DNA of 64,000 nt from Prevotella sp. (GTDB taxonomy: Bacteria; Bacteroidota; Bacteroidia; Bacteroidales; Bacteroidaceae). The DNA is taken from positions 36,118 through 100,117 of the forward strand of contig JAZSAV010000039.1 in NCBI GenBank assembly GCA_045602085.1, given 5' to 3'. This document shows, in pieces, positions 9,348 through 24,937 of the stretch. Numbering within the stretch: the stretch's first letter is position 1; every line of letters begins with the position of its first letter. The notes beneath the pieces were generated by a model, which searched no databases, was not told the DNA's origin, and was given only the letters and a program-made list of their open reading frames with translations. The position numbers and the translations under genes are program-made.

Positions 9348-9398
9348 AAATAATTTATTACTTTTGTAATCAGATTCTAACAATAACTCAACTTGCAT

Positions 9399-12300
9399 AT
9401 GTTAAGAGGATATATTTTGTTTGCCATGATGGTGATAGCACTGAAGGCAATGGCTGTCGATGATGCTACAAGCGGGTTGTGGAAGGGCTTTTCTAATCCA
9501 CAAGATTCGGCACGTACCAAAGTGTGGTGGTTTCACGGACAGACGGAAACAACACGCGAGGGAATAACCGCCGACCTTGAGGCGTTCAAGCGTCAGGGTG
9601 TGGGAGGCGTGGTGTTCTATAATCAGGTGCACGGCAAGCAGACGAGTGGGGCATTGAAGGTTTTTTCGCCTGAATGGTGGCAGATGTTCGTGTTTGCCGC
9701 GCAGGAGGCAAAGCGCCTGGGATTGACGTTCGAGACACACGCCTCTGACGGTTATGTGGCTGGCGGTCCTTGGATAACGCCTGATTTAGGCATGCAGAGA
9801 CTCACGAGTGAGGAATTACGAGTTACGAATTATGAATTAAACGGCCTCACCCCCAACCCCTCTTCAAAGGGCGAGGGGAGTGGTAACAATAGTATTTTAA
9901 GGAGTTCTGGAGTGCAGGAATGTAGGAGTGAAGACAATGGTTTGTCACGCAATTCTTCAATCCTTCAATCCTTTAATTCTTCCTCCTTCCTCCTCGCATA
10001 CCCCTTGAAAGGCAAGGAGTGGGAACGGAGCAAGACCATAAGCGAGGGGAAACTGATGACCATCGAGGCAGATGGCAACGAGCATTATCTGGATTTTGAC
10101 ATCAGCGACAGCTTCACCGCCCGACGAATAACATACAGGTGCGGCAAGCGAGGCAAGGCAACCACCAGTGCAACCAACGTGCCGGGACCTCCGGGCGAGA
10201 CATTCGTGGGAACTGGTTATCGTGAGATGCCCGATATAGGCGAGTTGCAGGCATCTGATGACGGAGTGAACTATTTCACCGTGTGCCGACTTAAGAATGT
10301 GTATAACGCACATGGCAGTTGGAATCAGAAAACCATAGCCTTTTCTGCGGTTAGAGCACGCCATTTCCGCTTGCGTCTGCACGACTGGAACCCGGAAGGC
10401 GAGAAGCGCAACCTGCGCATCGGCGACATCTCGCTACATTCGGCTGCCGGAGTAAACGAGTGGGAAGAGAAGGCGGCTCTTTATTCCGAGTATATAGAGC
10501 GACAGGAGATTGTTGACTATCCCGATGAGGAATGCCTACGCTCGGATGAGATGATAGACCTAAAGCAGTTTGTAGATGCCGACGGACATCTGCAATGGAA
10601 AGCACCCGAGGGCGATTTGCTGATAATGCGCTTTGCTCCAGTTCCCACGGGAGCGAAAACCAAGCATGGCACCGAGGGCATGGGCGGATTGGAATGCGAC
10701 AAGCTCTCGGCAAGGGCAGCTGAGGTGCAATGGCGCAACTACTTCAAGGTGATGAGCGACACGCTGGCACGCTACGGTTTGACGATTGACGGCTTGGCGA
10801 TGGACAGTCATGAGGCTGGTTCGCAAAACTGGACAGCAGATTTTGAAAAGCAGTTTGAGCGTCGCCGTGGCTACAGTCTTTTGCCCTATCTGCCAGTGAT
10901 GATGGGCTATGTGGTTGATTCGGCAGAGCGTTCCGAGCAGGTGCTTCAGGATGTACGCCGCACCATTGCCGACCTCATTGCCGATGAATACTATGCCACG
11001 CTCGACAGTCTTTGCCATTCGGTAGGCATCCCCTTTACCGCACAAGCCACGGGCAATGCCCTCTGCATCGTTTCCGACCCCATACAGGCAAAGGGCAGGG
11101 TGGCGAAGCCGCAAGGCGAGTTCTGGGCGATACATCCCGACGGCAATTATGACATTAAGGAATGCTCGTCGGCTGCCCACCTCTACGGCAAACCCATAGC
11201 ATCGGGCGAGGCGTTTACCGATGTGAAGTTCACCCAACCGCTGTCTTACATCAAGAGCTTGGCCGACTATGCCTATTGCTACGGTATCAACGAGTTTGTG
11301 GTGTGTGCCTCTGCCTATCAGGCGCAACAGGATAAAATGCCTTATAACACCGGAGGCGGACGCCACTATTGTCTGAACCGCAACAACACCTATTGGCCTT
11401 TCAGCCAACCCTTCTGGGATTACCAGGCGCGTTGCTCGTGGATGATGCGTCAGGGCAAGCCAGTGGTTGACCTCTGCGTATATCTCGGCGACAACGCCCC
11501 GGTGAAGATTCTCACTTACCGCTTGCCGGTAATCCCCTCAGGCTTCTACTACGATGCCTTTACAGCCGATGCCCTATACAATAGGATGAGGGCAGAAGAC
11601 GGCAGGATAGTGCTGCCCGACGGACTTTCATATAGAGCCATGATTATTCCTCGCCGCACGGTGCTCACGCCACAGGCAGCAGCCCGCATCGACTCGTTTG
11701 AGCGTGCCGGTGTGCCGATTATCAGGGAAACGACGCTGGAGTCGGTGGCTGAGGGGATAAGAAACCACAGACTTCTGCCGTCCATCCGTCTGCAACATGG
11801 CGACATGAATGATCAGCAACTGTGGTTTGCCCATCGTGCAACAGAGAACGCCGAACTGTATTTCATCAACAATCATGGCGAGGAGGTGATTGACGATGCT
11901 CTTGTCATAAGTTCGCCCTATCGGAATGCCGAGTGGTGGAATCCCGTTGACAACAAGCGCACGCGACTCACGCAGACAACCGATGGTGCATGGCGCATAC
12001 ACCTGCAACCAAAGGAGGCGGGTTTCGTTGTGCTCAGTAACCAGTCGGTGGCAGAACTTCCGCCATACGACAGAGGAAAGGAACGCTTGGTGAAGACGCT
12101 TGCAGACGACTGGAACGTCAGCTTCGACAAGAGTATGGGTGGGGTAGGTGATGTGCATTTCTCGCGACTTGCCGACTGGACAAACCATGCCGACACCGCT
12201 ATTAGGTATTATTCTGGCACTGCCATATATGAAAAGGAGTTCAAGATAAAGAAACCGAAGACTCGCACGCTGCTAAGAATACCCCAACTGCACGACATTG

Positions 12301-12572
12301 CCAAGGTTGAGGTTAACGGCATCGATGCCGGCATCATCTGGTGCTCACCGTGGCAACTCGACATCACCCGCTTTTTGCGCCAAGGCAAGAACACCCTGCG
12401 CATATCAGTAGCCAATACGTTGATGAACAGGATGATTTTAGATGCATCGTTGCCACAAGAACAGCGTGTAACCGAGGCAATACCTATGATAGCCACCCCC
12501 GACGACCAACTCACACCTTCTGGGATTGTGGGGAGTGTGGAATTGTTGGAGGTTGATGATGGAGAAAGATAG
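9399..12572 (+). CDS. GH106-family alpha-L-rhamnosidase-like glycoside hydrolase
   Basis: KVWWFHG...GITADLEAFK, AGGPWITP, GLECDKLS, DSHEAG, GEFW, AEAF-like SGEAF and C-terminal YSGTAIY...VANT motifs; contains a repeat-derived insert. Confidence 0.85.
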   Translation: MLRGYILFAMMVIALKAMAVDDATSGLWKGFSNPQDSARTKVWWFHGQTETTREGITADLEAFKRQGVGGVVFYNQVHGKQTSGALKVFSPEWWQMFVFAAQEAKRLGLTFETHASDGYVAGGPWITPDLGMQRLTSEELRVTNYELNGLTPNPSSKGEGSGNNSILRSSGVQECRSEDNGLSRNSSILQSFNSSSFLLAYPLKGKEWERSKTISEGKLMTIEADGNEHYLDFDISDSFTARRITYRCGKRGKATTSATNVPGPPGETFVGTGYREMPDIGELQASDDGVNYFTVCRLKNVYNAHGSWNQKTIAFSAVRARHFRLRLHDWNPEGEKRNLRIGDISLHSAAGVNEWEEKAALYSEYIERQEIVDYPDEECLRSDEMIDLKQFVDADGHLQWKAPEGDLLIMRFAPVPTGAKTKHGTEGMGGLECDKLSARAAEVQWRNYFKVMSDTLARYGLTIDGLAMDSHEAGSQNWTADFEKQFERRRGYSLLPYLPVMMGYVVDSAERSEQVLQDVRRTIADLIADEYYATLDSLCHSVGIPFTAQATGNALCIVSDPIQAKGRVAKPQGEFWAIHPDGNYDIKECSSAAHLYGKPIASGEAFTDVKFTQPLSYIKSLADYAYCYGINEFVVCASAYQAQQDKMPYNTGGGRHYCLNRNNTYWPFSQPFWDYQARCSWMMRQGKPVVDLCVYLGDNAPVKILTYRLPVIPSGFYYDAFTADALYNRMRAEDGRIVLPDGLSYRAMIIPRRTVLTPQAAARIDSFERAGVPIIRETTLESVAEGIRNHRLLPSIRLQHGDMNDQQLWFAHRATENAELYFINNHGEEVIDDALVISSPYRNAEWWNPVDNKRTRLTQTTDGAWRIHLQPKEAGFVVLSNQSVAELPPYDRGKERLVKTLADDWNVSFDKSMGGVGDVHFSRLADWTNHADTAIRYYSGTAIYEKEFKIKKPKTRTLLRIPQLHDIAKVEVNGIDAGIIWCSPWQLDITRFLRQGKNTLRISVANTLMNRMILDASLPQEQRVTEAIPMIATPDDQLTPSGIVGSVELLEVDDGER

Positions 12573-12614: not shown

Positions 12615-14033
12615 ATGAAGACAAACAAACTAATAACTATATTAGCAGCTTTAGGCATAAGCCTATTTGCGGTAGCTCAAGACGGTGCTATCAAGAAGAG
12701 CGCTCTGCCGCATAATCCCTTCGGCAATCCTCTTATTCCCGATATGATTGGCGACCCGAGCATTGTGGAGATAGACGGTACGTTCTATTGCTATGTGACC
12801 ACTGACGGCTACGGACGAGGACTTGAGACATCGGGACCTCCAGTGGTGTGGAAATCGAAAGACTTTAAGAACTGGAGTTTCAACGGAACATATTTCCCGC
12901 AAGCGGAAAACGAGAAGTACTGGGCACCAAGCAAACCTGTCAGGCGCAACGGCAAGTGGTACATCTATCCAACGGTGAACGGCTATATGTATCCTGCCGT
13001 GGCAGAAAGTCCTGACGGCCCTTTCCGACTGGTAAAGGGCGATACGTTCACGCTTGAGAACCGTCTGCTGGAGAAAGACAGCGTATGCGCCATTGACACC
13101 GAGATATTCATCGACGATGACAACACGCCATACGCCATCTGGGGACTTCGGAACGTGTCGCGGCTGAAGGAAGACATGGCAACCATCGACACGCTTGTTA
13201 CGATAACCACCCGCAAGAAGTCATATACCGAAGGCCCTATATTCTTCAAGCGTAACGGCATATACTATTTTCTCTATACCAACATGGCGCTCGAGAAATA
13301 TGAGTATTTCTATCAGATGAGTCATGTGTCGCCGTTTGGCCCTTACATCACACCAAAGCAAGACCGTGTTTGTGCCACCAATGCCGAGAAGGGTGTTTTC
13401 GGCCCCGGCCACGGTTGTGTGTTCCGCCTCGAAGGTACTGACGATTACTATCTCGCATATCTTGAGTTTAGCAGGAATAGCACTAACCGACAGGTGTATG
13501 TAAACAAACTCGAGTTTAATGCCGACGGCACCATCAAGCAGGTGGATGTCTCGCTCGATGGAGTAGGGGCATTGCGCCCTCAAGCCGATGCTCCTCGCCG
13601 ACTCATGCCTATGGACGTTAAGGCTTCGTCGGTGGCAGAACCACAACGTGTTCCTTACAAACTTGATAAGCGATGCCAGAGAACGGAGTATTTCGTGCCC
13701 GAATTTGCCGCTGACGAGTCGAACGGCTCACGCTGGATGGCTGCTGACAACGACACCGCCGATTGCTGGCTGATGCTCGACCTTGGTAGTGTGCGCAATG
13801 TGGGCACAAGCAAGATAGCCTTTGTCCGACCGACACAAGGTCATGCCTACGAACTTGAGGGTTCTGCCGACGGCAAGCAATGGGCACGAATTGGCGGTCA
13901 TGCCGACATTCGAAAGATGTCGCCGCATACCGATGCCATAGATATCCCTTTGCGCTATCTGCGAGTAAGGATAACAAGTGGCATCAGAGGTGTGTGGGAG
14001 TGGATAGTGGAAGAGCCACAAGAGAAAAGGTAA
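12615..14033 (+). CDS. GH43-family glycoside hydrolase with C-terminal F5/8 type C (CBM32-like) domain
   Basis: GDPSI, WAP, IDTEIFIDDD, YTEGP, GPGHG; RWMA...WLMLDLG module. Confidence 0.85.
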   Translation: MKTNKLITILAALGISLFAVAQDGAIKKSALPHNPFGNPLIPDMIGDPSIVEIDGTFYCYVTTDGYGRGLETSGPPVVWKSKDFKNWSFNGTYFPQAENEKYWAPSKPVRRNGKWYIYPTVNGYMYPAVAESPDGPFRLVKGDTFTLENRLLEKDSVCAIDTEIFIDDDNTPYAIWGLRNVSRLKEDMATIDTLVTITTRKKSYTEGPIFFKRNGIYYFLYTNMALEKYEYFYQMSHVSPFGPYITPKQDRVCATNAEKGVFGPGHGCVFRLEGTDDYYLAYLEFSRNSTNRQVYVNKLEFNADGTIKQVDVSLDGVGALRPQADAPRRLMPMDVKASSVAEPQRVPYKLDKRCQRTEYFVPEFAADESNGSRWMAADNDTADCWLMLDLGSVRNVGTSKIAFVRPTQGHAYELEGSADGKQWARIGGHADIRKMSPHTDAIDIPLRYLRVRITSGIRGVWEWIVEEPQEKR

Positions 14034-14041
14034 TTATAAAT

Positions 14042-14070
14042 AAATGGGATGCAGAGATTGCATCCCATTT
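14042..14070. terminator. Bidirectional terminator between convergent genes
   Basis: Perfect 12-bp inverted repeat AAATGGGATGCA/TGCATCCCATTT. Confidence 0.8.
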
Positions 14071-14075
14071 GTATT

Positions 14076-15674
14076 TTATATCTCTTCAAACAGATTGCCC
14101 CATGGGTAACTACCGGGTTTTAATATGATGCGCATATTGCCATGGGAGAGGCAGACGACGCCGGGCGAGTATTCATATTCTACATCGAAGGAACTGATGC
14201 CAAGGCGCTGAAGAACGGTGTAGGCAGTGGCGCCGCCTTCAATGATTATAAGAGTTGAGTGCTTCGCAAGTTGACAAGTTGACGAGTTGACGAGTTGACA
14301 AGTTGCTTGTTTCAGTTGACGAGTTGACAAGTTGCTTGTACTTGGAGGTAATGTCTGCACTCCTTCACTCCTGCACTCCTTCACTCCTTGTTCAGGTAAT
14401 GTCTGCACTCCTACACTCCTGCACTCCTGAACTCCTTGAACAGGTGATAAGATTTGATATGCCATTTCCCCAAAGAGCTTTCTAAGTCTTACGGCATACT
14501 CCTTGCCGCCAGTGGCTTCGTGACCTATGCGGACAATCATGGCATCGTGGTTTTGCCAATGGTCTTTGAGGGTTGCAATCCATGCGTTTGTTTCTAGAAT
14601 AGAAGCGGTTCCATGGAATACGTCTTCGGGCATGGTCACCTCAATGGCGTTCCTATCGGCAAAGAAGGGTTCGCCGATGAGCGAGCGGCTCTGGGTGCTG
14701 CCGCAGAGGATGAGTTTTTTTTCAGTTGACGAGTTGCTTGTATCAGTTGACAAGTTGACGAGTTGACGAGTTGACGAGTTGCTTGCATCAGTTGACAAGT
14801 TAACAAGTTGACGAGTTGACGAGTTGCTTGTACTTGAAGGTAATGTCTGCACTCCTAATAAATAATCCACCACCGCCTCAAACATATCGGCACCGCCGGC
14901 AAACAGGGTGTCGTTGTCGGACTTTGCGACATGCTCTCTGATTTCTTCGAGGGTGGTGGCGTCGGGGAGGAGAATCCCCCTCCCGTCCTCCCCCTTGGGG
15001 GAGGAAATAGATAAGAGATGAGAGCTTGGAGATGAGGGATTGCTTGTCCAGCTATTGTCTGAACTCCTACACTCCTGCACTCCTGCACTCCTTTTTAAAA
15101 GTTTCTTCGCCTCCGCCGTCCTTGCCGGAAACTCGGGGTCGTAGGCGAAAGATGTCTGGTCGAGTGGGGTGCCGTTTATATAATAGATGCCGTCTTTCAC
15201 TATTCTTCCCTTAGATGGGTTCTGCGGTATCAGCAATGCCTTCTGCTTGCCTGTTACCCTCATGAGTGCCTGTAACTCCGCCGCTACGTGACCTCGGAGG
15301 ACGGAGTCGGTTTTTTTGAAGATGATATCAGTTGACGAGTTGACGAGTTGACAAGTTGACAAGTTAACAAGTTGACGAGTTGACGAGTTGCTTGTACTTG
15401 AAGGTAATGTCTGCACTCCTACACTCCTGCACTCCTGCACTCCTGAATATAAACAAGTTGCCAGTTCTTCAATCGTTTTCACCGCCTCTTCCTCCGTGCC
15501 TGAGCGGGTGTCGGTGGCGAGAATAAGAGCCTCACCCCCTGCCCCTCTCCATGATGAGAGGGGAGTTGTTGGCACATTAGGTTGGTAAACCATCAACCAA
15601 ACCTTCATTCCCTTGCGCCATGCAATGCCCGCTATCTCGGCAGCTCCGGTTATGTCGTCGGCAATTATTAGCAT
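14076..15674 (-). CDS. DUF1537-family four-carbon acid sugar kinase (DtnK/DenK-like) with five repeat-derived in-frame inserts
   Basis: ADDITGA, FKKTDSVLRG, PQNPSKGR, EGGATA and KPGS motifs in order. Likely start ATG 15674. Confidence 0.85.
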   Translation of the reverse strand: MLIIADDITGAAEIAGIAWRKGMKVWLMVYQPNVPTTPLSSWRGAGGEALILATDTRSGTEEEAVKTIEELATCLYSGVQECRSVGVQTLPSSTSNSSTRQLVNLSTCQLVNSSTDIIFKKTDSVLRGHVAAELQALMRVTGKQKALLIPQNPSKGRIVKDGIYYINGTPLDQTSFAYDPEFPARTAEAKKLLKRSAGVQECRSSDNSWTSNPSSPSSHLLSISSPKGEDGRGILLPDATTLEEIREHVAKSDNDTLFAGGADMFEAVVDYLLGVQTLPSSTSNSSTRQLVNLSTDASNSSTRQLVNLSTDTSNSSTEKKLILCGSTQSRSLIGEPFFADRNAIEVTMPEDVFHGTASILETNAWIATLKDHWQNHDAMIVRIGHEATGGKEYAVRLRKLFGEMAYQILSPVQGVQECRSVGVQTLPEQGVKECRSEGVQTLPPSTSNLSTRQLKQATCQLVNSSTCQLAKHSTLIIIEGGATAYTVLQRLGISSFDVEYEYSPGVVCLSHGNMRIILKPGSYPWGNLFEEI

Positions 15675-15870
15675 ATTAATTTTTAGTTGACAAGTTGACG
15701 AGTTGACAAGTTGACGAGTTGACAAGTTGTTTGTATTAGTTGCCCCCAACCCCCCTTTTCAAGAGGGAGCACAGTTTGCTTTTGTTACAAAATCCCACCC
15801 AAAAATGGGAGGTTAGGATAAGGTTTCTCATCCCTAATCTCCTCCCCAAGGGGAGGATGGGAGGGGCTTT

Positions 15871-16893
15871 CTATTTATTCTTCGCCATCCGCGTAGCATA
15901 ATCAATGGAGAGGAGCATGGCAGAAGGGCTGGCGATGCCTTTGCCAGCCACGTCGAAGGCGGTGCCGTGGTCAACGGATACGCGGATGATAGGTAAGCCG
16001 AGGGTGATGTTCACGCCCTGTGCACTGTCCATCTTTCCCGTTTCCTTGTTCCAGTTGAACCCCACCACCTTAAACGGTATGTGCCCCTGGTCGTGATACA
16101 TGGCCACGCAACCGTCGTACTTGCCGCAACGTGCCTTGGCGAAGAGGGTGTCGGGCGGTACAGGACCGTCAACGTTGAAGCCTCTGCCTCTCAGTTCCTC
16201 GACGGCAGGCAGAATCTCCTTTTCCTCCTCCCAACCGAACAACCCGCCGTCGCTGGCGTGAGGGTTAAGTCCGGCGATACCAATGCGAGGATTGTCAATG
16301 CCAAACTGCTTGCAGGCATCGCTAATCAGTTCGGTAACCTCGATGATGCGTGGCTTCTTCACTCTGTCGCAAGCCTCGCGCAGAGAGACGTGTGTAGAGA
16401 CGTGGATTACGCGCAGAAACTCATCTGCCAGCAGCATGGCATATTTCTTTGTGCCTGTGAAGTGGGCATATATCTCGGTATGTCCGTCGAAGTGATGACC
16501 GGCAAGGTTCAGCGCCTCCTTGTTTAGGGGAGCCGTCACGGTGCCGTCCACCTCGCCCGCCATAGCCAGTTCGATGGCTTTTATTATCGAAACGAAAGCA
16601 GCGTTTCCGCATTGCGGAGCCACCTTGCCCGGCTCGAACTGCTCCATGTCGATGCAGTTGAGGTCATATACATCGATGGTTCCATATTCAAACTTTGCCT
16701 CGCTGACGTTGGCAATGGCGTTTATCTTCACGTCGGCACCCAGTTGCTTGGCTGCCCATTCCATTACTTTAGCGTCGCCCGTAACTATTGGGCGGCACTT
16801 CTCATAAGTCTCTTTTATTGTTAGGGCCTTAACCACTATCTCAGGTCCGATGCCTGCTGGGTCGCCCATGGTGATTGCTAGTATTGGTTGCAT
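15871..16893 (-). CDS. pdxA: PdxA-family dehydrogenase, PdxA2-like by context (4-phospho-tetronate dehydrogenase)
   Basis: MGDPAGIGPE, GLNPHA, MYHDQG, NITLGLPIIRVSVDHGTAFD. Likely start 16893. Confidence 0.9.
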   Translation of the reverse strand: MQPILAITMGDPAGIGPEIVVKALTIKETYEKCRPIVTGDAKVMEWAAKQLGADVKINAIANVSEAKFEYGTIDVYDLNCIDMEQFEPGKVAPQCGNAAFVSIIKAIELAMAGEVDGTVTAPLNKEALNLAGHHFDGHTEIYAHFTGTKKYAMLLADEFLRVIHVSTHVSLREACDRVKKPRIIEVTELISDACKQFGIDNPRIGIAGLNPHASDGGLFGWEEEKEILPAVEELRGRGFNVDGPVPPDTLFAKARCGKYDGCVAMYHDQGHIPFKVVGFNWNKETGKMDSAQGVNITLGLPIIRVSVDHGTAFDVAGKGIASPSAMLLSIDYATRMAKNK

Positions 16894-17042
16894 GTTATTT
16901 TTTAGTTGACAAGTTAACGAGTTAACGAGTTGACGAGTTGACAAGTTGTTTGATTGAGTTGACAAGTTAACGAGTTGACAAGTTGTTTGATTATACATGA
17001 ATATTTTTCAGTTGCACATAACTCGTCAACTCGTCTACTTGT

Positions 17043-18194
17043 TTACTCGTTTACTAGTGAAAAATAAATCCCCCTCGCATCCTCCTCCGTCACCTCGCGC
17101 GGATTATTCTTGAGGAGGCGTTGAACGCCCATGGCTGCCTTTGCCATGCCGTCAACGGCCGAGGCAGGGATGCCCAGTTCGGTGATGGTGGTAGGAATGC
17201 CGCAATCCTTAGAAAGTTGGGTGATGAACTCCACACCCTTGAGAGCCGTTTCCTCGTCTGATGCTCCAGGAGCAACGCCGCAAGCCAATGCCACCTCGGC
17301 ATATTTCTTTGGATTAGCGCAGATGTTGAAGCGCATCACCGCTGGCAGAAGAATGGCATTTGAAAGACCGTGAGAGAGGTGGAACTCGCTTCCAAGAGGG
17401 TAGGAGAGAGCGTGGACAGCCGCCGTGTTCACAGGTCCGAGGCATAATCCGCCATACATGCTACCTAAAGCCAATGCCTCGCGTGCCTCCACGTCGTTGC
17501 CGTTTTTCACCGCACGGAGCAGGTTGGCGGCTATAAGACGAATACCCTGCAAGGCATATACATCTACTACGGGATGAGCAAACTTGTTGGTGTAAGCCTC
17601 AAGACAATGCGTCAGAGCGTCCATGCCCGTCTCGGCGGTTACCTTTGCCGGCACGCTCCATGTCAGTTGCGGGTCGATATAAGCAGCATCAGCCATAAGG
17701 TGAGGACTCACGATGCCCTTCTTCATGTTGTCGCGCTCGTCGAGCAGGATGGCGTTTGGCGACACTTCGCTACCCGTTCCTGCCGTTGTAGGCAGACAGG
17801 CGAACCATTTGCCGCGCTGCTTCACGAAACCGATGCCAAACAAGTCTTCCACCTGTTGCTCGCTATCCACGAGAGCAGCCACGAGCTTTGCCACGTCGAG
17901 CACGCTTCCGCCGCCCACGCCCACTACGCTATCTGCCTGGAACAGGCGTGCTGCTTCAAGCGTCTGTTTAAAGTCGTTGACACTTGGTTCTTGCATAATG
18001 TTTTCATACACCTCGATGCTGATGCCTTTGCTCTCGAGCGTTTCGATCATCTCTGCAATCATCGGTCGTATGACGGGCACGGTGAGCACGAAAAGTCTCT
18101 TGTGCCCCAATGCGATATAGTCGTCGCAGAACTGCTTCAGGCATCCTGTGCCGAATACTATCTTGCCGGGTTGTAATAGGGTTATGTTGTTCAT
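17043..18194 (-). CDS. Iron-containing alcohol dehydrogenase family protein
   Basis: GGGSVLD, PTTAGTGSE, DALTH, HALSY..HLSHG. Confidence 0.92.
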   Translation of the reverse strand: MNNITLLQPGKIVFGTGCLKQFCDDYIALGHKRLFVLTVPVIRPMIAEMIETLESKGISIEVYENIMQEPSVNDFKQTLEAARLFQADSVVGVGGGSVLDVAKLVAALVDSEQQVEDLFGIGFVKQRGKWFACLPTTAGTGSEVSPNAILLDERDNMKKGIVSPHLMADAAYIDPQLTWSVPAKVTAETGMDALTHCLEAYTNKFAHPVVDVYALQGIRLIAANLLRAVKNGNDVEAREALALGSMYGGLCLGPVNTAAVHALSYPLGSEFHLSHGLSNAILLPAVMRFNICANPKKYAEVALACGVAPGASDEETALKGVEFITQLSKDCGIPTTITELGIPASAVDGMAKAAMGVQRLLKNNPREVTEEDARGIYFSLVNE

Positions 18195-18343
18195 GTTTGT
18201 TTGTGTTGTTGTGTTGAGATGTTGTTGTGATGAATAGTTTGATGTGTTGTTGAGATGTTTAGATGCTGTTTTGATGAACAGTTTGTTGCAACTGTTTGAT
18301 GAAATAAGAAATCATTCATCATCACAACACCTCAACAGGTTAA

Positions 18344-19909
18344 TCACTTCTTCCTCCTCTCCTCCAAATATCCGTAGATGGTGAGGTTCTTGTCGGCAAG
18401 CGGAGTCTTGAAGCAACGGCTTGCGATGAAGCCTACCACCAATACTATAATGTGGCTATACACACCGAGCATCAATGTGTGGTGAGGGAAGTTGTATTCG
18501 CCCAGGTCGAGGAACAGGGTTCCGTCGTCGGCCTTTGTTGTGGTCAGCACGGCATAGGCGGTAAAGATGATGGCGCAGGCGATGCCGATATAGAGACCCT
18601 GCCAGTTGGCGCGGCGGTCGAACAAACCGAGCATGAAGATGCCCACGATGCCAGCCGAGAGAATGGCATAGAGGCCGAAGAGAGTGCCCAGCACGCCGTC
18701 GCCGCCCCAGCTCACGTAGAGCAGAGCCACACCAATACATGCAAATCCTACTACGAGCACCGACACACGGCCAGCAAACAGTTTCTCCTTGTCGCTTGCC
18801 TTAGGACGTATGCGTGAGTAATAATCCTCAACCACACAAGCCGAGATGCAGTTGATGTCAGAGTCGAGACTTGACACCGCACCAGCTATCAGAGCCGCTA
18901 TCACCAATCCTGTAAGACCCACTGGCATCTCTGTGGCAATGAAATATGGGAACACGTCGTCGTTGCGAATACCCTCAGGCAGAGCGCCGCTGTTCACCTG
19001 ATAGTAGGCGAAGAGGCAAGTGCCCACAAACATAAACAATGCCCATGCTGGCACGCTCATCAATATACCCATATACGAAGCCTTCTTAGCCGATTTGTCG
19101 CTCTTGGCGGTGAGGTAGCGCTGAACGATTGTCTGGTCGGTTCCATACTTCTGTATAGCATAGAAGATACCGTTGATTACCAGTACCCAGAACGTGCGCT
19201 GGCAGAAGTCCCAGTCGTAAGGTCCCACGTCAATCTTCTTGTGCTCAGCCGCAATGGCAAATATCTCAGATGGTCCTCCGTCGGTAAGGTAGAACAGCAA
19301 GCCGATGGCCATCAGGCCGCCTATGATGAGCAGGAATCCCTGTGCCACGTCCATCCAGATGATGGCTTCCATGCCGCCCAGATAGGTGAGCGCAATAACC
19401 ACGATGCCCACGAAGATGATAATCCACGCGATGGTTGTTGGGTCGTTATATCCAGTGAATATGGCCACGGCTGTACCCATGAGGAACATGATGGTACCCG
19501 ACTTGGCAAAGTGCTCAAGGATGAATGCCACCGAACTATAATAGCGTGCCAGCGAACCGAAACGGCGCTCGAAATACTCGTAGCAGCTCAGGCGAATCAT
19601 CTTGCGGTAGAGAGGCACGATATAGCCTATTACGAATACCAATACTACGGGCACCATCAATCCTTGCACCAATAGAATCCAGTTGCCGCCATAGGCAGCT
19701 CCAGGGTAGGCGAGGAACGTTACGCTACTGATGATTGTGGCAAACATCGACATACCGATGGCCCATGTAGGCACGGCGCCGTTAGCGGCGAAGTATGCCT
19801 GCGTTGAGTTTTGTTTCTTTGAGAAATACACGCCCACGCCTACGGCTGCGAGCACTGACACGATGATAATGGTGTAGTCGATCCAATGTAAAGATGTGTT
19901 TAGTTCCAT
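18344..19909 (-). CDS. Sodium:solute symporter (SSS)
   Basis: Multi-TM; SMFATIISSVTFLAYPG, YEYFERRF, DQTIVQRYL, SSLDSDIN. Confidence 0.92.
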   Translation of the reverse strand: MELNTSLHWIDYTIIIVSVLAAVGVGVYFSKKQNSTQAYFAANGAVPTWAIGMSMFATIISSVTFLAYPGAAYGGNWILLVQGLMVPVVLVFVIGYIVPLYRKMIRLSCYEYFERRFGSLARYYSSVAFILEHFAKSGTIMFLMGTAVAIFTGYNDPTTIAWIIIFVGIVVIALTYLGGMEAIIWMDVAQGFLLIIGGLMAIGLLFYLTDGGPSEIFAIAAEHKKIDVGPYDWDFCQRTFWVLVINGIFYAIQKYGTDQTIVQRYLTAKSDKSAKKASYMGILMSVPAWALFMFVGTCLFAYYQVNSGALPEGIRNDDVFPYFIATEMPVGLTGLVIAALIAGAVSSLDSDINCISACVVEDYYSRIRPKASDKEKLFAGRVSVLVVGFACIGVALLYVSWGGDGVLGTLFGLYAILSAGIVGIFMLGLFDRRANWQGLYIGIACAIIFTAYAVLTTTKADDGTLFLDLGEYNFPHHTLMLGVYSHIIVLVVGFIASRCFKTPLADKNLTIYGYLEERRKK

Positions 19910-20479
19910 AATAATTTATTTTTGAGCCCCCTCCTAACCTCCCCCTTGGGGGAGGAATTGGGGAGTAGGTTTTTTGAGTTTAGGAGTTTTTGAGTTTTTA
20001 GGAGTTTAGGAGTTTTTGAGTTTTTAGGAGTTTTGAGTTTTTGAGTTTTTAGGAGTTCGGGAGTTCAGGAGTTCAGGAGTTCAGACGATAGTTTGTCAAG
20101 CAATCCCTCATCTCTCATCCCTCATCCAAAATTTGGAGTGTAGGAGTAAAGGAGTGTAGGAGTGTAGACGTATGCTTGTCAAGCTAATCAAGTTCCTCCC
20201 TTTAGTAAGGGGAGGTTAGGTGGGGATTGTGAATCGTTCAATGCTCATCGCTCAACGTGCATCGTTTAGGTGTCCATCCCCCTCTGCCTCCCCCTTTCCA
20301 AAGGGGAGCACAGTATGCTTGGCAAGCAATCACTCATCCCTCATCCCAATTTAGGAGTTCAGACGATACCTTAAGCATTTGTCCTTTATCTTCCTCTATC
20401 TTCTTTGTAACTTCCTTTAACTCCTTTGTTTTTGATTATCAACTCCCCTCTCTCTGGGAGAGGGGCGGGGGTGAGGCCT
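19910..20479. repeat. Intra-operon spacer composed of modular short repeats
   Basis: GGAGTTTT/GGAGTTCA/GGAGTGTA runs, C/G-rich hairpins, CTATCTTC run. Confidence 0.85.
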
Positions 20480-21391
20480 TTAGCAATACTTCTCCACCAC
20501 CGCCTTGGCATCTCTCTTAATACGCTCCACGATGTCGTCGTTCAGAGTGGTGAGCGGAGGCAGCATGTAGTAGTCGCACAAGCCAGCCATGCTCATTATC
20601 ACCTTGAGTCCGCAGAGCGATTCGCCCAAAGTAAGACCGGCGGTGTTTATCTTGCCTATCTCTATGGTAAGCTGTTGCAGTTCCTCTGCCTTTGCCGTAT
20701 CGCCGTCGCGACCAGCCTCATAGAGTGCCTGATAGAGCTGCGGCACGTAGTTGCCCACGCTTGGCACGATGCCGTCGCCGCCCAGCGAAAGAGCCTTTGC
20801 CGAGTTGGCAGCACATCCGCAGAAGTAAGAGAAATCCTCGCGGTCGGCAAAGAGTTTCAGCGCCTCCTCTATGCGTGGCACGTTGTTCTCAGAGTCCTTC
20901 AAGCCCACGATGTTCGGGTGGTGGCTCAGGCGCTCTATGATGTCCATAGGTATGCTCATGTGCGTTGTTATGTCTATGTTGTAGAGCATCAGCGGCACGG
21001 TCAGCGCGTCTGCCATTGTCTTGTAGTAGTTGTACATCTGCTCAGGCTGTAGCTTGTAGTAGCAAGGCAGTGTGGCGGCAATCACGTCGGCTCCCGCCTC
21101 GATGAATTTCTTTGCCGTTTCCAGCTGTTCGCTCACGCAGTTGCCAGGCAATCCCACGTAGATGGTCACCCTGCCCTTTGCCGCACGCTTTGCCGCACTG
21201 ATCATCTCCACGCCTTGGCATGCAGAAACAGAGTTGCCCTCGCCCGTAGTTCCCATTATCAGAGGCGAAACGCTGTTGTTGGCAAAGTTCTCGATGATTC
21301 TCTCCACGGCGGCAACGTCTATCTTGCCCTCGCTGGTAACGGGTGTCACCATTGGCACCACCACGCCGTGGTATTTCTTTTCAGTCTTCAT
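20480..21391 (-). CDS. DHDPS/NanA-family class I aldolase
   Basis: GTTGEG, LYNI, catalytic Lys in VGLKDS. Confidence 0.9.
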   Translation of the reverse strand: MKTEKKYHGVVVPMVTPVTSEGKIDVAAVERIIENFANNSVSPLIMGTTGEGNSVSACQGVEMISAAKRAAKGRVTIYVGLPGNCVSEQLETAKKFIEAGADVIAATLPCYYKLQPEQMYNYYKTMADALTVPLMLYNIDITTHMSIPMDIIERLSHHPNIVGLKDSENNVPRIEEALKLFADREDFSYFCGCAANSAKALSLGGDGIVPSVGNYVPQLYQALYEAGRDGDTAKAEELQQLTIEIGKINTAGLTLGESLCGLKVIMSMAGLCDYYMLPPLTTLNDDIVERIKRDAKAVVEKYC

Positions 21392-21655: not shown

Positions 21656-22444
21656 ATGCTCGGCACAATAGTAAACACATGTACGATAATAGTCGGTTCG
21701 GTGGTGGGCGCGCTGCTCAACCGCGGAATCAAGGAGAAATATAAGAACGTGCTCTACACCGGATTGGGACTTGCCTGTTTGGCTATTGGTCTTAACGCCA
21801 CAGTTACCAACCTGCCTAAGAGCCAGTATCCCGTACTCTTCATCGTGGCCATCTCCATTGGTGGCGTCATCGGTACAGCCCTCGATATTGACGGACGGTT
21901 TAAGAGAAGAGTTGACAAGTTGAGTCATTCAGTTGACGAGTTGACAAGAAGTTCCTTGAGTGAAACGAAAAAACAAGTTGACAAGTTGTGTGATTCAGTT
22001 GCAAATAACTCGTCAACTCGTCAACTCGTTGACTCGTCAACTAATAAAACCCTCGCCTCCGGCCTCAGCACCGCCGTACTCGTCTATTGCATAGGTCCCC
22101 TGTCTATGCTCGGTCCTGTGATAAGTGCGCTCAAGGGCGACAACACCTTTCTCTATACCAATGCCACGCTCGACCTCGTGTCGTCGGTTGTCTTTGCCTC
22201 GACCTACGGCATCGGCATGATACTTGCCGCCCCTGTGCTCTTCCTCTGGCAAGGACTGTTCTATCTTGTGGCATCACTCTCGAGTCAGGCAGTCAGCGAA
22301 GCCCTCATGGCAGAACTGCTCATCGTAGGCGGAATGATGATAACCGCCAGCGGCCTCTCGCTCCTCAACCTCAAGGATTGCAAGACGCTCAACTATCTGC
22401 CCGCTCTGCTCGTGCCAGTGGTTTGGTTCTTGGTGGTGGAGTGA
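21656..22444 (+). CDS. DUF554-family membrane protein with repeat-derived insert
   Basis: MLGTIVN..TIIVGS, YCIGPLS.LG, LD..SS.VFAS.YGIG, LP(A)L motifs. Confidence 0.85.
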   Translation: MLGTIVNTCTIIVGSVVGALLNRGIKEKYKNVLYTGLGLACLAIGLNATVTNLPKSQYPVLFIVAISIGGVIGTALDIDGRFKRRVDKLSHSVDELTRSSLSETKKQVDKLCDSVANNSSTRQLVDSSTNKTLASGLSTAVLVYCIGPLSMLGPVISALKGDNTFLYTNATLDLVSSVVFASTYGIGMILAAPVLFLWQGLFYLVASLSSQAVSEALMAELLIVGGMMITASGLSLLNLKDCKTLNYLPALLVPVVWFLVVE

Positions 22445-22751: not shown

Positions 22752-24937
22752 TTACCTAATAAACAACAGCTCGCGATATTTCGGCAGCGTCCAAAGGCCG
22801 TCTTCGATTATCATTTCGAGATTGTCTATTTCCAGTCGCATTGCCTGCATCTTCGTGTCCACGGTGTCGTGGTATGCGATGGCGCGCTCGCGTATGCTCT
22901 CTATTCGGTTGGCAAGTCGGCGTGCCTCGGTCAGTTCGTCGGTCAGTCGCTCAATGCTCTCCGTGCGCTCTGCTATCTCCTCAATGAGTTTCATGTTGCG
23001 TGCACTCAGTCGCTCAGCCTTGTCGGCAGGGAAGATGCTCTGCATGCTCTGTACGTTCTTGATGAGCTTGCTCTGGTAGTGTGTGGCCACTGGTATGATG
23101 TGGTTCATCGAGAGGTCGCCCATGACGCGCGCTTCTATCTGCACGGTCTTGACGTATGTTTCCCATTTCACCTCGTTGCGTGCCTCCAGTTCCTTGCGTG
23201 TCATCACCTTGGTGCTCTCGAACATGCTTACGGTTTGCTCGTCGAGGTAGTGCTCGAAGATTACGGGGCATGACTTCTCAACGTCAAGTCCTCGGCGTTC
23301 TGCCTCTACCACCCACTCGTCGCTGTAGCCGTTGCCGTCGAAGCGTATTGGCTTGCATGTCTTTACGTCCTGTCGCAGTATGTTTATGATGGCGCTAATC
23401 TTGTCTTCGCCATCGGCGATGCGTGCATCTACGCGCTGCTTGAAACTGGTCAGTGCCTCTGCCATGGCAGCATTGAGTGCTATCATGGCCGATGCGCAGT
23501 TGCCCTCGCTACCTGGTGCACGGAACTCGAATCTGTTGCCGGTGAAGGCGAACGGCGACGTGCGGTTGCGGTCGGTATTGTCGATGATGAGGTCGAGATT
23601 GCCCAGTTGCGACGTGCGCGGAGCAAGGTAAGAAAGGTCTTGGTATGAGAAATCTTCACGCTCCAGCAGTTCGAGCATGCCAGTAAGCTGCTTGCCAAGG
23701 AAGCTGGAGATGATGGCTGGCGGTGCCTCATGGCCTCCCAGTCGGTGGGCGTTGGTGGCACTCATGATGCTGGCCTTGAGAAGTCCGTTATGCTTATGGA
23801 CAGCCATCAGCGTTTCTACGATGAAGACTATGAAGCGGAGGTTCTCTTCGGGTGTCTTGCCTGGCGCGTGGAGCAAAGTGCCGTTGTTGGCAGAGAGGCT
23901 CCAGTTGTTGTGCTTGCCCGAACCGTTGATGCATCGAAGGGCTTTTCGTGGAGCAACACGCGGAAACTATGCTTGCGTGCCACTTTCTTCATCAGCGACA
24001 TGAGCAGCATGTTGTGGTCAACGGCGAGGTTGCACTCCTCGAAGATAGGTGCCAGCTCAAACTGGTTTGGCGCCACCTCGTTGTGACGTGTCTTGCAAGG
24101 TATGGCAAGTTCCAGCGCCTGCACCTCAAGGTCTTTCATGAACGCCTGCACGCGGTCGGGTATGGTGCCGAAGTAGTGGTCGTCCATCTGTTGGTTCTTG
24201 GCACTCTCATGCCCCATCAGCGTGCGACCGGTGAGCATGAGGTCGGGACGTGCAGAGTAGAGACCCTCGTCAACGAGGAAATACTCCTGTTCCCAACCGA
24301 GGTTACACTTTACGCGTGTCACGTTGTCGTAGAAATACTGGCATACTTCGGTGGCTGCCTTGTCAACGGCACGAAGGGCGCGAAGCAGAGGTGCCTTGTA
24401 GTCGAGCGACTCGCCCGTATAGCTTATGAAGATTGTTGGGATACAGAGGGTGTCGTCGATTATGAACACGGGTGAGGTGGGATCCCATGCCGAGTAACCG
24501 CGTGCTTCGAACGTGTTGCGAATGCCTCCATTTGGGAATGATGATGCGTCCGGTTCCTGCTGTACGAGCAGTTTGCCGCTGAACTTCTCCATCATTCCTC
24601 CCTTGCCGTCGTGTTCAACGAAGGCGTCGTGTTTCTCGGCGGTGCCTTCGGTCAGCGGCTGGAACCAGTGGGTGTAGTGGGTGACACCCATCTCCATTGC
24701 CCATTGTTTCATGCCTGCCGCCACAGCATCTGCTATCGAGCGGTCGAGGCGTGCGCCATTGTCTATGACGTCTATCAGTTGGTTGTAAACATCCACGGGC
24801 AGGTACTTGTACATCTTCTGTCGGTCGAAGACGTACTTTCCGAAATATTCTGATGGTCTTTCCTTTGGTGTCTCAACGTTGAGCGGGCGCTTCTTGAACG
24901 CCTCTTCTACTACTTGGAATCTTAAATTGCTTGACAT
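22752..24937 (-). pseudogene. glnA: Glutamine synthetase type III split by a 1-bp deletion near 23932 (pseudogene or sequencing error)
   Basis: THYTHWFQPLT, QQEPDASSF, EQEYFL, HNEVAP.QFE, DRNRTSPFAFTGNRFEFRA; expected HEKPFDGINGSGKHNNWS reads GAT-GC-ATC-AAC. Confidence 0.9.

Follow-up and report, generated by a model that had tools for sequence, protein, structure and literature searches.

A conserved five-gene operon in Prevotella as a candidate catabolic route for the rhamnogalacturonan-II sugar Dha

Introduction

One of the closest described counterparts of the operon analyzed here is the D-threonate catabolic pair that Zhang et al. reportedly described in 2016, in which the DUF1537 kinase DtnK acts with PdxA2, a decarboxylating 4-phospho-D-threonate dehydrogenase. 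Pairs of this kind are said, in the work of Zhang and of Thiaville from 2016, to serve the catabolism of C4 acid sugars or the recycling of 4-hydroxythreonine, and Thiaville et al. reportedly noted proteobacterial "pdxA-like clusters" in the same year. PdxA-family and DUF1537 enzymes also take part in D-apionate catabolism. In the GarL-GarR-GarK pathway of glucarate and galactarate, a keto-deoxy-aldarate is cleaved to pyruvate and an acid semialdehyde, which is reduced to a hydroxy acid and then phosphorylated. Dha (3-deoxy-D-lyxo-2-heptulosaric acid) is a rare acid sugar of side chain D of the pectin rhamnogalacturonan-II (RG-II); it is uncapped and released by GH142 and GH143, the latter being the Dha hydrolase (Pfam PF24067). 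The RG-II degradome of Bacteroides thetaiotaomicron is said to have been defined by Ndeh et al. in 2017.

The enzymes of that degradome are listed in PMC13501991. The pdxA-like clusters (Sinorhizobium meliloti; Escherichia coli B2/APEC region GR6) encode a kinase 40% identical to Salmonella DtnK and a PdxA protein 75% identical to PdxA2, and have been read as PLP-related, without an assigned substrate (PMC12928451). Our literature search found no paper that links Dha to any catabolic route, and hence no published description of a Dha pathway.

Results

Pfam and NCBIfam profile searches of positions 14076-21391 of the window (the whole 64,000-nucleotide stretch of Prevotella sp. DNA analyzed) identified five minus-strand genes in one orientation, confirming the run of aldolase, SSS symporter, Fe-ADH, PdxA and DUF1537 kinase genes described in an earlier, sequence-only reading (Table 1). 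That reading had also placed GH106 and GH43 genes beside the run. Their adjacency and family assignments hold, but both are convergent on the plus strand and their adjacency is not conserved in the loci of relatives. Because of this convergent arrangement and of the intervening hairpin, whose stems of 15 and 12 pairs are followed by T-runs on both strands, we regard the two genes as neighbors that are not co-transcribed with the operon. The nearest solved relative of the GH106 protein is 5MQM/5MWK (399 bits), which we take to be the RG-II rhamnosidase BT0986. In gut Prevotella, including the window, the operon lies outside any PUL and is flanked by housekeeping genes.

Table 1. Features in and around the operon, in positions of the window.
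Feature	Position	Strand	Details
GH106 alpha-L-rhamnosidase family protein	9393..12572	+	PF17132, E 2e-132; convergent neighbor
GH43 + F5/8-type-C protein	12615..14033	+	PF04616, E 1.5e-38; convergent neighbor
Terminator-like hairpin, bidirectional	14040..14072		separates the kinase gene from the convergent GH43 gene
Divergent DUF1537 acid-sugar kinase	14076..15674	-	532 aa, core about 382 aa; PF07005 + PF17042
Kinase repeat insertions (span)	14262..15578	-	15555-15578, 15336-15440, 15018-15077, 14793-14852 (+14757-14768), 14262-14438
PdxA2-type dehydrogenase	15871..16893	-	340 aa from ATG 16893; PF04166, E 3e-106
Iron-dependent alcohol dehydrogenase (Fe-ADH)	17043..18194	-	383 aa; PF00465 + PF25137
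SSS sodium:solute symporter	18344..19909	-	521 aa; PF00474; TIGR00813 209 bits, above cut-off
Aldolase-symporter spacer	19910..20479	-	570 bp, full of hairpin and octamer repeats
DHDPS/NanA-family class I pyruvate aldolase	20480..21391	-	303 aa; PF00701, E 1e-55

The starts of the kinase and PdxA genes were corrected to the ATG codons given by the gene limits in Table 1; the upstream parts of the ORFs as listed (14076-15749 and 15871-16998, respectively) are translated octamer repeats. Alignment of the kinase to 11 orthologues of 372-391 aa, with subsequent mapping onto the DNA, revealed five major in-frame insertions totaling about 150 aa and built from arrays of CAACTCGT- and GAGTGCAG-type octamers. 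All motifs invariant among the orthologues are retained in the repeat-bearing kinase, the function of which may be impaired by these insertions. The repeat-rich spacer between aldolase and symporter is also expanded, compared with about 20-200 bp in relatives.

Conservation of the operon was analyzed in two sets of 80 loci each, anchored on the kinase and fetched independently. All five genes occur together in 56 of the gut-type and 64 of the environmental loci; since the four other genes accompany the kinase this often, they group with it far more frequently than chance would allow. The cluster has two arrangements, ALD-SSS-FeADH-PdxA2-KIN and FeADH-ALD-PdxA2-KIN-SSS, and is spread over Bacteroidota (among them Prevotella, Bacteroides, Alistipes, Mucilaginibacter, Spirosoma, Niastella and Saccharicrinis), Ignavibacteriota (Ignavibacteriales), Balneolales (Aliifodinibius) and Planctomycetota (Anaerohalosphaeraceae, Phycisphaerae). 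The Fe-ADH gene is absent from at least seven Prevotella-type loci, and loci in Opitutales and Acidobacteria carry PdxA2 and the kinase without the other cluster genes. As an indirect indication, the homologues that carry names include no well-known RG-II model Bacteroides.

Among the 69 environmental loci with at least four of the five genes, 46 encode an RG-II-type enzyme within 10 kb of the cluster. GH143 or GH142 genes are found near the cluster in 21 (in 10 of these within 3 kb), some directly abutting it: in Pleomorphovibrio a stand-alone GH143 gene (PF24067, E 4e-117, + PF22585) immediately precedes the aldolase, two Bacteroidales MAGs have the order GH143-GH142-cluster-GH28, and Pedobacter heparinus has SusC/D-GH143-LacI-cluster. 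A reciprocal scan of 80 GH143-anchored loci recovered the whole cluster in nine, two more in which it is cut by the locus end, and six further loci with its first gene at the flank edge; where GH143 and the cluster share a contig but lie further apart, the distance is 12-33 kb. Genes for BT1013-type GH78/GH33 Kdo hydrolases neighbor the cluster as often as GH143/GH142 (22 versus 21 of the 69 loci), and Dha and Kdo cannot be separated by synteny alone. In some loci, the cluster also adjoins genes for a GH127 aceric-acid hydrolase or a GH140 apiosidase.

The genome itself has an RG-II PUL and encodes a protein orthologous to BT1020 (1771 bits to 5MQR), with orthologues of BT0996, BT0997, BT1003, BT1010, BT1012 and BT1013 in addition. 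This BT1020-type protein, on contig C7, is the true GH143/GH142 enzyme. The window also encodes a BNR_4 protein of 606 aa (34066-35886), which a companion idea took to be GH143-like; this idea did not hold up, and the protein is not GH143.

The aldolase scores below the NCBIfam cut-offs for dapA (164.7 versus 206) and nanA (90-100 bits versus 281-382) and has a threonine in place of DHDPS Arg138, while its motifs GTTGE, YY, YNI..TT and the Schiff-base lysine motif G[LI]KDSE are kept across phyla. Its only other homologue in the genome, on contig C4 and 25% identical, is presumably dapA. For the symporter, the best solved relative is 5NV9 (270 bits versus 148 for the next match), the sialic-acid symporter SiaT. 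The top NCBIfam models for the Fe-ADH are short-chain aldehyde reductases (ErcA, sulfoacetaldehyde reductase, lactaldehyde reductase and 4-hydroxybutyrate dehydrogenase), all matched below cut-off.

An orthologue of the operon PdxA has 4jqp, 2hi1 (PdxA2) and 6e85 (D-threonate 4-phosphate dehydrogenase) as its best solved relatives (286-318 bits), compared to 184 bits for the E. coli PdxA structure, and the operon protein itself remains below the NF002891 cut-off (339-342 versus 583). A second PdxA on contig C18, 36% identical to it, is closest to E. coli PdxA. By sequence, the operon PdxA is thus of the PdxA2/D-threonate-4-phosphate-dehydrogenase type and distinct from this housekeeping enzyme. 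The kinase matches the DtnK model NF047819 weakly (97-110 bits versus a cut-off of 450), and its similarly weak score to the 3-oxo-tetronate kinase model (OtnK) is almost equal, so that another acid sugar is possible as its substrate. Its matches to DUF1537 structures are weak as well.

Discussion

Comparative genomics supports, short of proof, the reading of the operon as a catabolic route from Dha to pyruvate, DHAP and CO2, which we consider moderately probable. This idea, put forward in the sequence-only reading, gains weight from the linkage to GH143/GH142 and other RG-II enzymes, the PdxA2 type of the dehydrogenase, the SiaT-like symporter, the separate Kdo-type module described below and the re-derived stereochemistry, in which pyruvate and D-threuronate are the aldol cleavage products of D-lyxo Dha and reduction of the latter gives D-threonate. 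Counting against it are the low model scores of kinase and PdxA, the equally frequent Kdo-hydrolase neighbors, the Prevotella-type loci without Fe-ADH, the position of the operon outside PULs in gut Prevotella, the repeat insertions in the kinase and the lack of RG-II model Bacteroides among the named homologues. We infer every substrate and product of the route against a background of observed gene families, unit conservation and RG-II linkage. In the periplasm, GH142 would take off the capping L-arabinofuranose and GH143 would free Dha, both activities residing in this genome in the single BT1020-type protein. Dha would then be taken up by the symporter, its proposed sodium-coupled importer, and cleaved between C3 and C4 by the proposed Dha aldolase to pyruvate and D-threuronate. 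The Fe-ADH, as proposed D-threuronate reductase, would form D-threonate with NAD(P)H, and the kinase would yield 4-phospho-D-threonate; the divergence of its DUF1537 domain makes D-threonate 4-kinase a putative assignment. Finally, the PdxA2-type enzyme, as proposed 4-phospho-D-threonate dehydrogenase (decarboxylating), would produce DHAP and CO2 and regain the reduced cofactor, so that the net conversion, Dha + ATP to pyruvate + DHAP + CO2 + ADP, would be redox-neutral.

The operon could instead primarily serve Kdo, which GH33 would release, the symporter would take up and the aldolase would split into pyruvate and D-arabinose, with a side product or some other compound left to Fe-ADH, kinase and PdxA2. 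In line with this, a BT1013-type GH78/GH33 or a stand-alone GH33 gene lies directly upstream of the cluster in many loci of Chitinophagales, Sphingobacteriales and Cytophagales (22 of the 69 loci, 16 of these within 3 kb), and four Prevotellaceae loci have genes for an FGGY kinase and a FucI-like isomerase ahead of the aldolase. D-arabinose, however, requires none of the three remaining enzymes, which nevertheless travel with aldolase and symporter across phyla, and a distinct aldolase/symporter pair (ALD-2/SSS-2, with FucI in Rufibacter) adjoins GH33 genes, is the better fit for Kdo and probably serves it. We therefore regard a primarily Kdo-degrading operon as unlikely. As Kdo and Dha have the same C4-C6 configuration, the operon aldolase and symporter may accept Kdo as well, which would matter most in genomes without the second module, including the present one.

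Still less probable is the degradation of another RG-II acid sugar, e.g., aceric acid, or of an apionate-like branched acid (cf. ApnO/OiaK). Reduced aceric acid would be a 2-C-substituted tetronate, on which the last three steps can be written: the Fe-ADH would reduce the aldehyde, the kinase would phosphorylate the new primary hydroxyl and PdxA2 would form a 5-deoxypentulose phosphate by oxidative decarboxylation. The GH127 and GH140 neighbors would suit such substrates, and PdxA-family and DUF1537 enzymes take part in the catabolism of D-apionate (PMC13753588). Yet this scheme leaves no role for the invariably present pyruvate-dependent DHDPS-type aldolase, a 2-keto-3-deoxy acid fits the SiaT-like transporter, the PdxA gene is similar to D-threonate-4-phosphate dehydrogenases, and general gene-family clustering of the flanks yielded no recurrent extra family able to supply the RuBisCO-like enzyme for apionate. 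Most improbable of all, in our view, is a DtnK/PdxA2-like module for free D-threonate or D-erythronate, or for 4-hydroxythreonine/PLP salvage, with aldolase and Fe-ADH merely co-located and devoted to an unrelated substrate. DUF1537-PdxA2 pairs can on their own catabolize C4 acid sugars and recycle 4-hydroxythreonine (PMC9997740; PMC12928451), and two-gene loci exist in Opitutales and Acidobacteria, but the five genes stay together through two orders and several phyla, inside RG-II loci, and the genome has its separate housekeeping PdxA.

The proposed Dha route shares features with several known systems. As in the B. thetaiotaomicron degradome, BT-type enzymes are encoded in this genome, and numerous other taxa have the cluster embedded in loci of that kind; the degradome study and a 2026 review cover glycosidases only and give no fate for the released Dha. 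The pdxA-like clusters likewise combine a DapA-like aldolase, Fe-ADH, DUF1537 kinase and PdxA2 with a sialidase-fold protein, but differ in a CitT-like transporter, cytoplasmic sialidase-fold and YhcH-like proteins and a GlpR regulator. The front ends are at most putative orthologues, since the S. meliloti aldolase is absent from the plasmid matches to the operon aldolase at E<=1e-30. Sialic acid (nan) catabolism also joins a sialidase-fold hydrolase, an SSS symporter and a DHDPS/NanA-family lyase on a 2-keto-3-deoxy sugar acid; the operon aldolase falls below the NanA cut-offs, and in place of ManNAc kinase and epimerase its acid-semialdehyde product would enter a branch of reductase, kinase and decarboxylating dehydrogenase. 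The Gar pathway follows the same scheme of cleavage, reduction and phosphorylation, one carbon shorter and with other families (class II HpcH aldolase, beta-hydroxyacid dehydrogenase, glycerate kinase), and its product enters glycolysis as 2-phosphoglycerate without the decarboxylation proposed here. With the DtnK/PdxA2 pair, finally, the operon has in common a DUF1537 kinase gene next to one for a PdxA2-type dehydrogenase and, in our proposal, identical last two steps; in contrast to that pair, its kinase belongs to a divergent subfamily, and it adds an upstream front end of symporter, aldolase and reductase by which D-threonate would be formed intracellularly out of a C7 diacid instead of being imported.

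The operon and its neighbours

The five co-oriented genes that the sequence-only reading had placed at 14076-21391 were borne out by Pfam and NCBIfam matches, all on the minus strand. They encode a DHDPS/NanA-family aldolase (ALD), a sodium:solute symporter (SSS), an iron-dependent alcohol dehydrogenase (Fe-ADH), a PdxA-family dehydrogenase (PdxA2) and a DUF1537 kinase (KIN). Because the 5' ends of the listed kinase and PdxA ORFs are translated octamer repeats, the starts of both were moved to internal ATG codons. GH106 and GH43 genes do adjoin the operon, as that reading had noted, but they lie on the opposite strand, converge with it and are not members; a terminator-like hairpin parts the two units. 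Pfam searches of the window revealed no SusC/D and no further glycosidases near the operon. In close Prevotella relatives the same five genes occur in the same order amid housekeeping genes (ksgA, glycogen synthase, nrdDG, RNase R), and a setting of SusC/D plus RG-II glycosidases is absent there too.

Positions of features in the window, in other contigs of the same genome (C) and in loci from other genomes (L)
Feature	Position	Strand	Remarks
DHDPS/NanA-family aldolase	20480-21391	-	303 aa; PF00701, E 1e-55
Sodium:solute symporter	18344-19909	-	SSF domain; TIGR00813, 209 bits (cut-off 184)
Fe-ADH	17043-18194	-	
PdxA-family dehydrogenase	ORF 15871-16998	-	true start ATG 16893; PF04166
DUF1537 kinase	ORF 14076-15749	-	true start ATG 15674; PF07005 and PF17042
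GH106	9393-12572	+	convergent neighbour of operon
GH43	12615-14033	+	convergent neighbour of operon
Bidirectional terminator-like hairpin	14040-14072		between GH43 and kinase genes
Kinase insertions	15555-15578; 15336-15440; 15018-15077; 14793-14852 with 14757-14768; 14262-14438	-	
Octamer arrays, window	14262-15578; 16904-16985; 22006-22042; ~9909		in kinase; before pdxA2; inside DUF554; in GH106
Octamer arrays, elsewhere (examples)	C7:1050-6647; C15:52861-56097; C20:451780-457697		
Swollen spacers	19910-20479; 15675-15870; 24965-25182		22 copies of TTTCTAGGAC in the last
Glutamine synthetase (type III)	22752-24937	-	23828-24937, GSIII_N and start of catalytic domain; 22752-23876, C-terminal domain
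BNR_4 protein	34066-35886	+	606 aa, secreted
BT1020 orthologue	C7:55200-58595		GH143 fused to GH142; 1131 aa; 1771 bits to PDB 5MQR
Aceric-acid hydrolase	C9:253595-255661		NF049879, above cut-off; surroundings C9:247305-257545
Third SSS symporter type	C9:251746-253431		23% identical to operon symporter
FGGY/FucI-like pair	C17:1310-4381		89% and 63% identity
FGGY/FucI-like genes before aldolase	L043, L049, L050, L056		e.g. L049:2212-5138
Downstream PfkB kinase	L055, L058, L060, L063, L066, L067, L070, L092, L023		e.g. L055:11167-12225
ALD-2/SSS-2 modules	L255:10190-14492; L156:651-3069; L213:3461-6903; L240:2480-6750		L255, Rufibacter tibetensis plasmid NZ_CP012644.1
GH140-GH28-GH43-like-GH143, 80 bp, aldolase; then GH138 and SusD/C	L087		Pleomorphovibrio
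GH143-GH142-cluster-GH28	L094, L156		Bacteroidales MAGs; BT1020 halves as separate genes abutting operon
SusC-SusD-GH143-LacI-cluster	L175		Pedobacter heparinus; second GH143 copy in main PUL (L131)
GH143-(SASA esterase, DUF3826)-GH33-cluster	L127, L141, L149		Spirosoma, Larkinella
GH143 <=2 kb from cluster	L085, L089		Ignavibacteriales, Aliifodinibius
GH142-cluster-GH138-GH95-GH137/GH2	L192		Mucilaginibacter

A proposed, stereochemically consistent route from Dha to D-threonate

The proposed assignment of the operon to Dha (3-deoxy-D-lyxo-2-heptulosaric acid), an acid sugar of the pectin RG-II, includes a stereochemical argument, which we re-derived with the same outcome. C4, C5 and C6 of Dha stand left, left and right in Fischer projection. 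Cleavage between C3 and C4 by the aldolase would give pyruvate and OHC-C5(left)-C6(right)-COOH, i.e., D-threuronate. Reduction of its aldehyde by the Fe-ADH would yield D-threonate, since on renumbering from the carboxylate C2 stands left and C3 right. The DUF1537 kinase would then make D-threonate 4-phosphate, on which PdxA2 would act to release DHAP and CO2. D-Threonate and its 4-phosphate are known substrates of DtnK and PdxA2, respectively. As a check on the derivation, its application to Kdo, the second ulosonic acid of RG-II, returns D-arabinose, as known. Each family would act in its typical reaction, and the scheme would deliver pyruvate, DHAP and CO2 at the cost of one ATP; it would be redox-neutral, since PdxA2 regenerates what the reductase consumes.

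Evidence from the single enzymes

An orthologue of the operon's dehydrogenase scored 286-318 bits against 4jqp, 2hi1 (PdxA2) and 6e85 (D-threonate 4-phosphate dehydrogenase) versus 184 against E. coli PdxA, whereas a second PdxA copy on contig C18, 36% identical to the operon copy, showed the opposite preference (210 versus 167 bits). By these scores the operon copy is the PdxA2 paralogue and not the housekeeping enzyme, although scores stay below the NF002891 equivalog cut-off (339-342 versus 583 bits). The best solved relative of the symporter is 5NV9 (270 bits; second-best 148 bits), which we take to be the sialic-acid symporter SiaT of Proteus mirabilis, and this relationship fits a predicted 2-keto-3-deoxy acid cargo.

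The aldolase retains the class I motifs GTTGE, YY, YNI and G[LI]KDSE, the last with the Schiff-base lysine, in 12 orthologues from several phyla. It is neither a DapA (164.7 bits, below the TIGR00674 cut-off of 206), for which a separate dapA-like gene lies on contig C4, nor a NanA (90-100 bits versus equivalog cut-offs of 281-382). Threonine occupies what we take, from motif mapping, to be the position of Arg138, the residue by which DapA binds the carboxylate of aspartate semialdehyde; the idea that this arginine clamps the threuronate carboxylate was dropped, as the residue is not conserved. The Fe-ADH resembles short-chain aldehyde reductases, several of them for anionic aldehydes (sulfoacetaldehyde, succinate semialdehyde), and is an equivalog of none of these among the NCBIfam models.

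The kinase is the weak point of the Dha reading. It has both DUF1537 domains (SBD_N and NBD_C), and its adjacency to the PdxA-family gene is retained in 73 of 80 loci. Its scores mark it as a divergent member, far below a DtnK equivalog: against the D-threonate kinase model NF047819 (cut-off 450), the window protein reached 96.6 bits and orthologues from loci L004 and L087 109.7 and 75.2 bits. Scores were 58-83 bits against the 3-oxo-tetronate kinase model and 37-47 bits against solved DUF1537 proteins.

Conservation of the five-gene unit

Two kinase-anchored scans of species-representative genomes recovered all five genes together in 56 of 80 gut-type and 64 of 80 environmental loci, and most loci lacking the full set are short contigs. 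Fe-ADH is absent from at least seven Prevotella-type loci, and in a few loci of Opitutales and Acidobacteria only PdxA2 and kinase are present. Carriers within Bacteroidota include Prevotella, Bacteroides, Phocaeicola, Duncaniella, Alistipes, Mucilaginibacter, Pedobacter, Niastella, Puia, Spirosoma, Larkinella, Saccharicrinis and Prolixibacteraceae; beyond that phylum the cluster was found in Ignavibacteriales, Aliifodinibius (Balneolales), Anaerohalosphaeraceae and Phycisphaerae. The genes are ordered either ALD-SSS-FeADH-PdxA2-KIN or FeADH-ALD-PdxA2-KIN-SSS, and that the same five families are retained across phyla although their order has changed speaks for a single pathway. A handful of contigs with Firmicutes or Staphylococcus labels carry genes at least 60% identical to those of Bacteroidales and are probably mis-binned.

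In nine Prevotella-type loci a PfkB-family sugar kinase gene lies just downstream on the opposite strand. A route inspired by it, in which direct PdxA-type decarboxylation of Dha leads to 2,5-diketo-3-deoxygluconate and on to KDG, is less likely, as it needs atypical chemistry from kinase and PdxA2.

Linkage to RG-II degradation

Outside gut Bacteroidales the cluster usually sits inside RG-II loci. Of the environmental loci, 69 retain four or more of the core genes; in 46 of these an RG-II-type enzyme is encoded within 10 kb of the cluster, and in 29 within 3 kb. GH143 (the Dha hydrolase) or GH142 (an arabinofuranosidase) occurs in 21 (10 of them within 3 kb), and a BT1013-type GH78/GH33 or stand-alone GH33 in 22. 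The reciprocal scan, anchored on GH143 (80 loci), found the whole cluster within 10 kb in nine; two more are truncated where the locus ends, and in six further loci a cluster-type Fe-ADH (68-70% identity) occupies the outermost part of the flank. At 1-2 GH143 genes per ~4000 genes, chance would bring the two within 10 kb in <1% of genomes, by our own rough estimate rather than a computed statistic. The coordinates of both fetched genes place GH143 and the cluster 12-33 kb apart on one contig in Niastella populi, Desertivirga xinjiangensis, Paraflavisolibacter caeni, Mucilaginibacter sp. OK268 and a Saccharicrinis MAG.

Homologues of the window's genes point to Prevotellaceae. The genome under study (3.39 Mb in 49 contigs, 92% complete) carries RG-II genes on contig C7: GH2, BT0996-type GH137/GH2 and BT0997-type GH138 (NF049877 and NF049878, both above cut-off), BT1013-type GH78/GH33, GH140 apiosidase and GH95. 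Together with the BT1020 orthologue on the same contig, this apparatus indicates that the genome can release Dha. By contrast, the proposal that the BNR_4 protein of the window is a GH143 failed: it matched only PF15892, and searches of the PDB (up to E<=10) and of NCBIfam gave nothing, whereas true stand-alone GH143 proteins match PF24067 at E 4e-117. It is the sole BNR_4 protein of the genome.

The aceric-acid hydrolase on contig C9 is surrounded by two beta-helix proteins resembling GH141 and by an SSS symporter of a third type, which may transport another RG-II sugar. Chitinophagaceae loci, among them those of Niastella and Puia, have this trio again, downstream of the cluster. Elsewhere in the window, the glutamine synthetase gene is split into two overlapping ORFs by a frameshift or assembly error near 23830-23876.

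Dha, Kdo and other candidate substrates

Kdo-hydrolase genes adjoin the cluster in environmental loci as often as GH143/GH142, so that synteny alone cannot tell whether the operon serves Dha or Kdo. Two points speak for Dha. The D-arabinose formed from Kdo needs none of Fe-ADH, DUF1537 kinase and PdxA2. Moreover, a distinct aldolase/symporter pair, ALD-2/SSS-2, exists beside GH33 Kdo-hydrolase genes in RG-II loci and fits Kdo. In Chitinophagaceae loci BT1013-type GH78/GH33, SSS-2, one further gene and ALD-2 precede FeADH-ALD-PdxA2-KIN-SSS; in one Bacteroidales MAG (L156) the pair lies upstream of GH143; and on the Rufibacter tibetensis plasmid, in an RG-II-type locus, L-fucose isomerase, an ALD-2 62% identical to the L156 type and its symporter stand in a row. 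E. coli FucI also isomerises D-arabinose, and ALD-2/SSS-2, with or without FucI, is a candidate Kdo module that would take Kdo to pyruvate and D-arabinose and on to D-ribulose. The ALD-2 role is filled by two unrelated DHDPS-family types: one occurs in L156 and on the Rufibacter plasmid, the other, of 327 aa, in Chitinophagaceae. The gene that separates SSS-2 from ALD-2 in L240 encodes a 536-aa protein that had no PDB match.

The genome under study lacks ALD-2/SSS-2 and may use its one aldolase and one symporter for Dha and Kdo alike. In four Prevotellaceae loci the aldolase is directly preceded by genes for a sugar kinase of the FGGY family and a FucI-like isomerase of 473 aa, and this genome holds such a pair on contig C17. 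The pair may handle D-arabinose after Kdo cleavage, and its position in these few loci would fit dual use. Of the remaining candidates, a route for aceric acid through Fe-ADH, kinase and PdxA2 can be written but gives the pyruvate aldolase nothing to do. A RuBisCO-like enzyme is required for apionate routes, and a general clustering of flank genes, not aimed at that enzyme, showed no additional family that recurs next to the cluster. If the module served free D-threonate, D-erythronate or 4-hydroxythreonine, the steady presence of aldolase, reductase and symporter with it in RG-II loci would go unexplained.

Taken together, the conserved unit, its RG-II/GH143 linkage, the PdxA2 type and the SiaT-like symporter lend the Dha interpretation new comparative support. 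The operon very probably catabolises an RG-II ulosonic acid; that it runs the full route from Dha through D-threonate to DHAP we favour with moderate confidence.

Repeat insertions in the kinase gene and across the genome

Aligned with 11 orthologues, the kinase contains five major in-frame insertions, ~150 aa in total, built of octamer arrays translated as ...GVQECRS...SSTRQLVN..., yet every residue invariant among the orthologues is still present. At 1/3 per insertion, all five would be in frame by chance in ~0.4% of cases, which argues that the gene is probably still under selection.

The genome holds 186 arrays built from two octamers, CAACTCGT and GAGTGCAG, both stop-free in all three sense frames. 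Sixty-seven (36%) lie inside long ORFs, with at least 60 aa open on each side, and are nearly always sense-oriented as the same composite element; host genes include RG-II enzymes on C7. The composite resembles the Rickettsia palindromic elements, in-frame repeats tolerated within proteins. Three spacers of the window are swollen by hairpin elements (cccctc...gagggg type) and 7-10-bp tandem arrays.

Implications and relation to known pathways

RG-II is the most complex plant glycan, and its glycosidases are known; we know of no account of the fate of its rare acid sugars. A five-gene Dha route, if true, would fill this gap and provide functions for a divergent subfamily of DUF1537 kinases, an aldolase of the DHDPS family and an Fe-ADH. 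It would also mark gut, rumen and soil bacteria that gain carbon from RG-II side chain D, and its enzymes could be used to make or assay Dha and threuronate. Our broadest proposal, which we hold to be about as likely as not, is that these genes form the first Dha pathway, in which two undescribed activities, Dha aldolase and D-threuronate reductase, feed the DtnK/PdxA2 branch; that they are a widespread accessory of RG-II (perhaps algal Kdo/Dha-glycan) loci in at least four phyla; and that in gut Prevotella without ALD-2/SSS-2 the same aldolase and symporter process Kdo too.

Among open papers, we found none that meaningfully links heptulosaric acid to threonate, D-threonate to rhamnogalacturonan, or DUF1537 to RG-II, and a report in a subscription journal is possible. 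GH143 is listed in a 2026 review on how pectin is degraded, which does not give the fate of Dha (PMC13501991). No open paper naming a Kdo aldolase (EC 4.1.2.23) gene was found; a 2025 paper refers only to presumed endogenous activity in E. coli.

The combination of families is itself already known from an E. coli island encoding a CitT-like transporter, YhcH-like, sialidase-like and DapA-like proteins, Fe-ADH, a DtnK-like kinase (40% identical to Salmonella DtnK), PdxA2 (75% identity) and GlpR (PMC12928451). Where it cites similar S. meliloti clusters from Thiaville 2016, that paper reads them as PLP-related and leaves the substrate unassigned (PMC12928451). Rhizobial megaplasmids gave no orthologue of the aldolase at E<=1e-30; the plasmid search returned the Rufibacter FucI-aldolase-symporter module instead. 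In kind, the operon would add a new front end to the DtnK/PdxA2 branch, itself already known, and the proposed scheme would parallel the GarL-GarR-GarK route for C6 aldarates, being one carbon longer.
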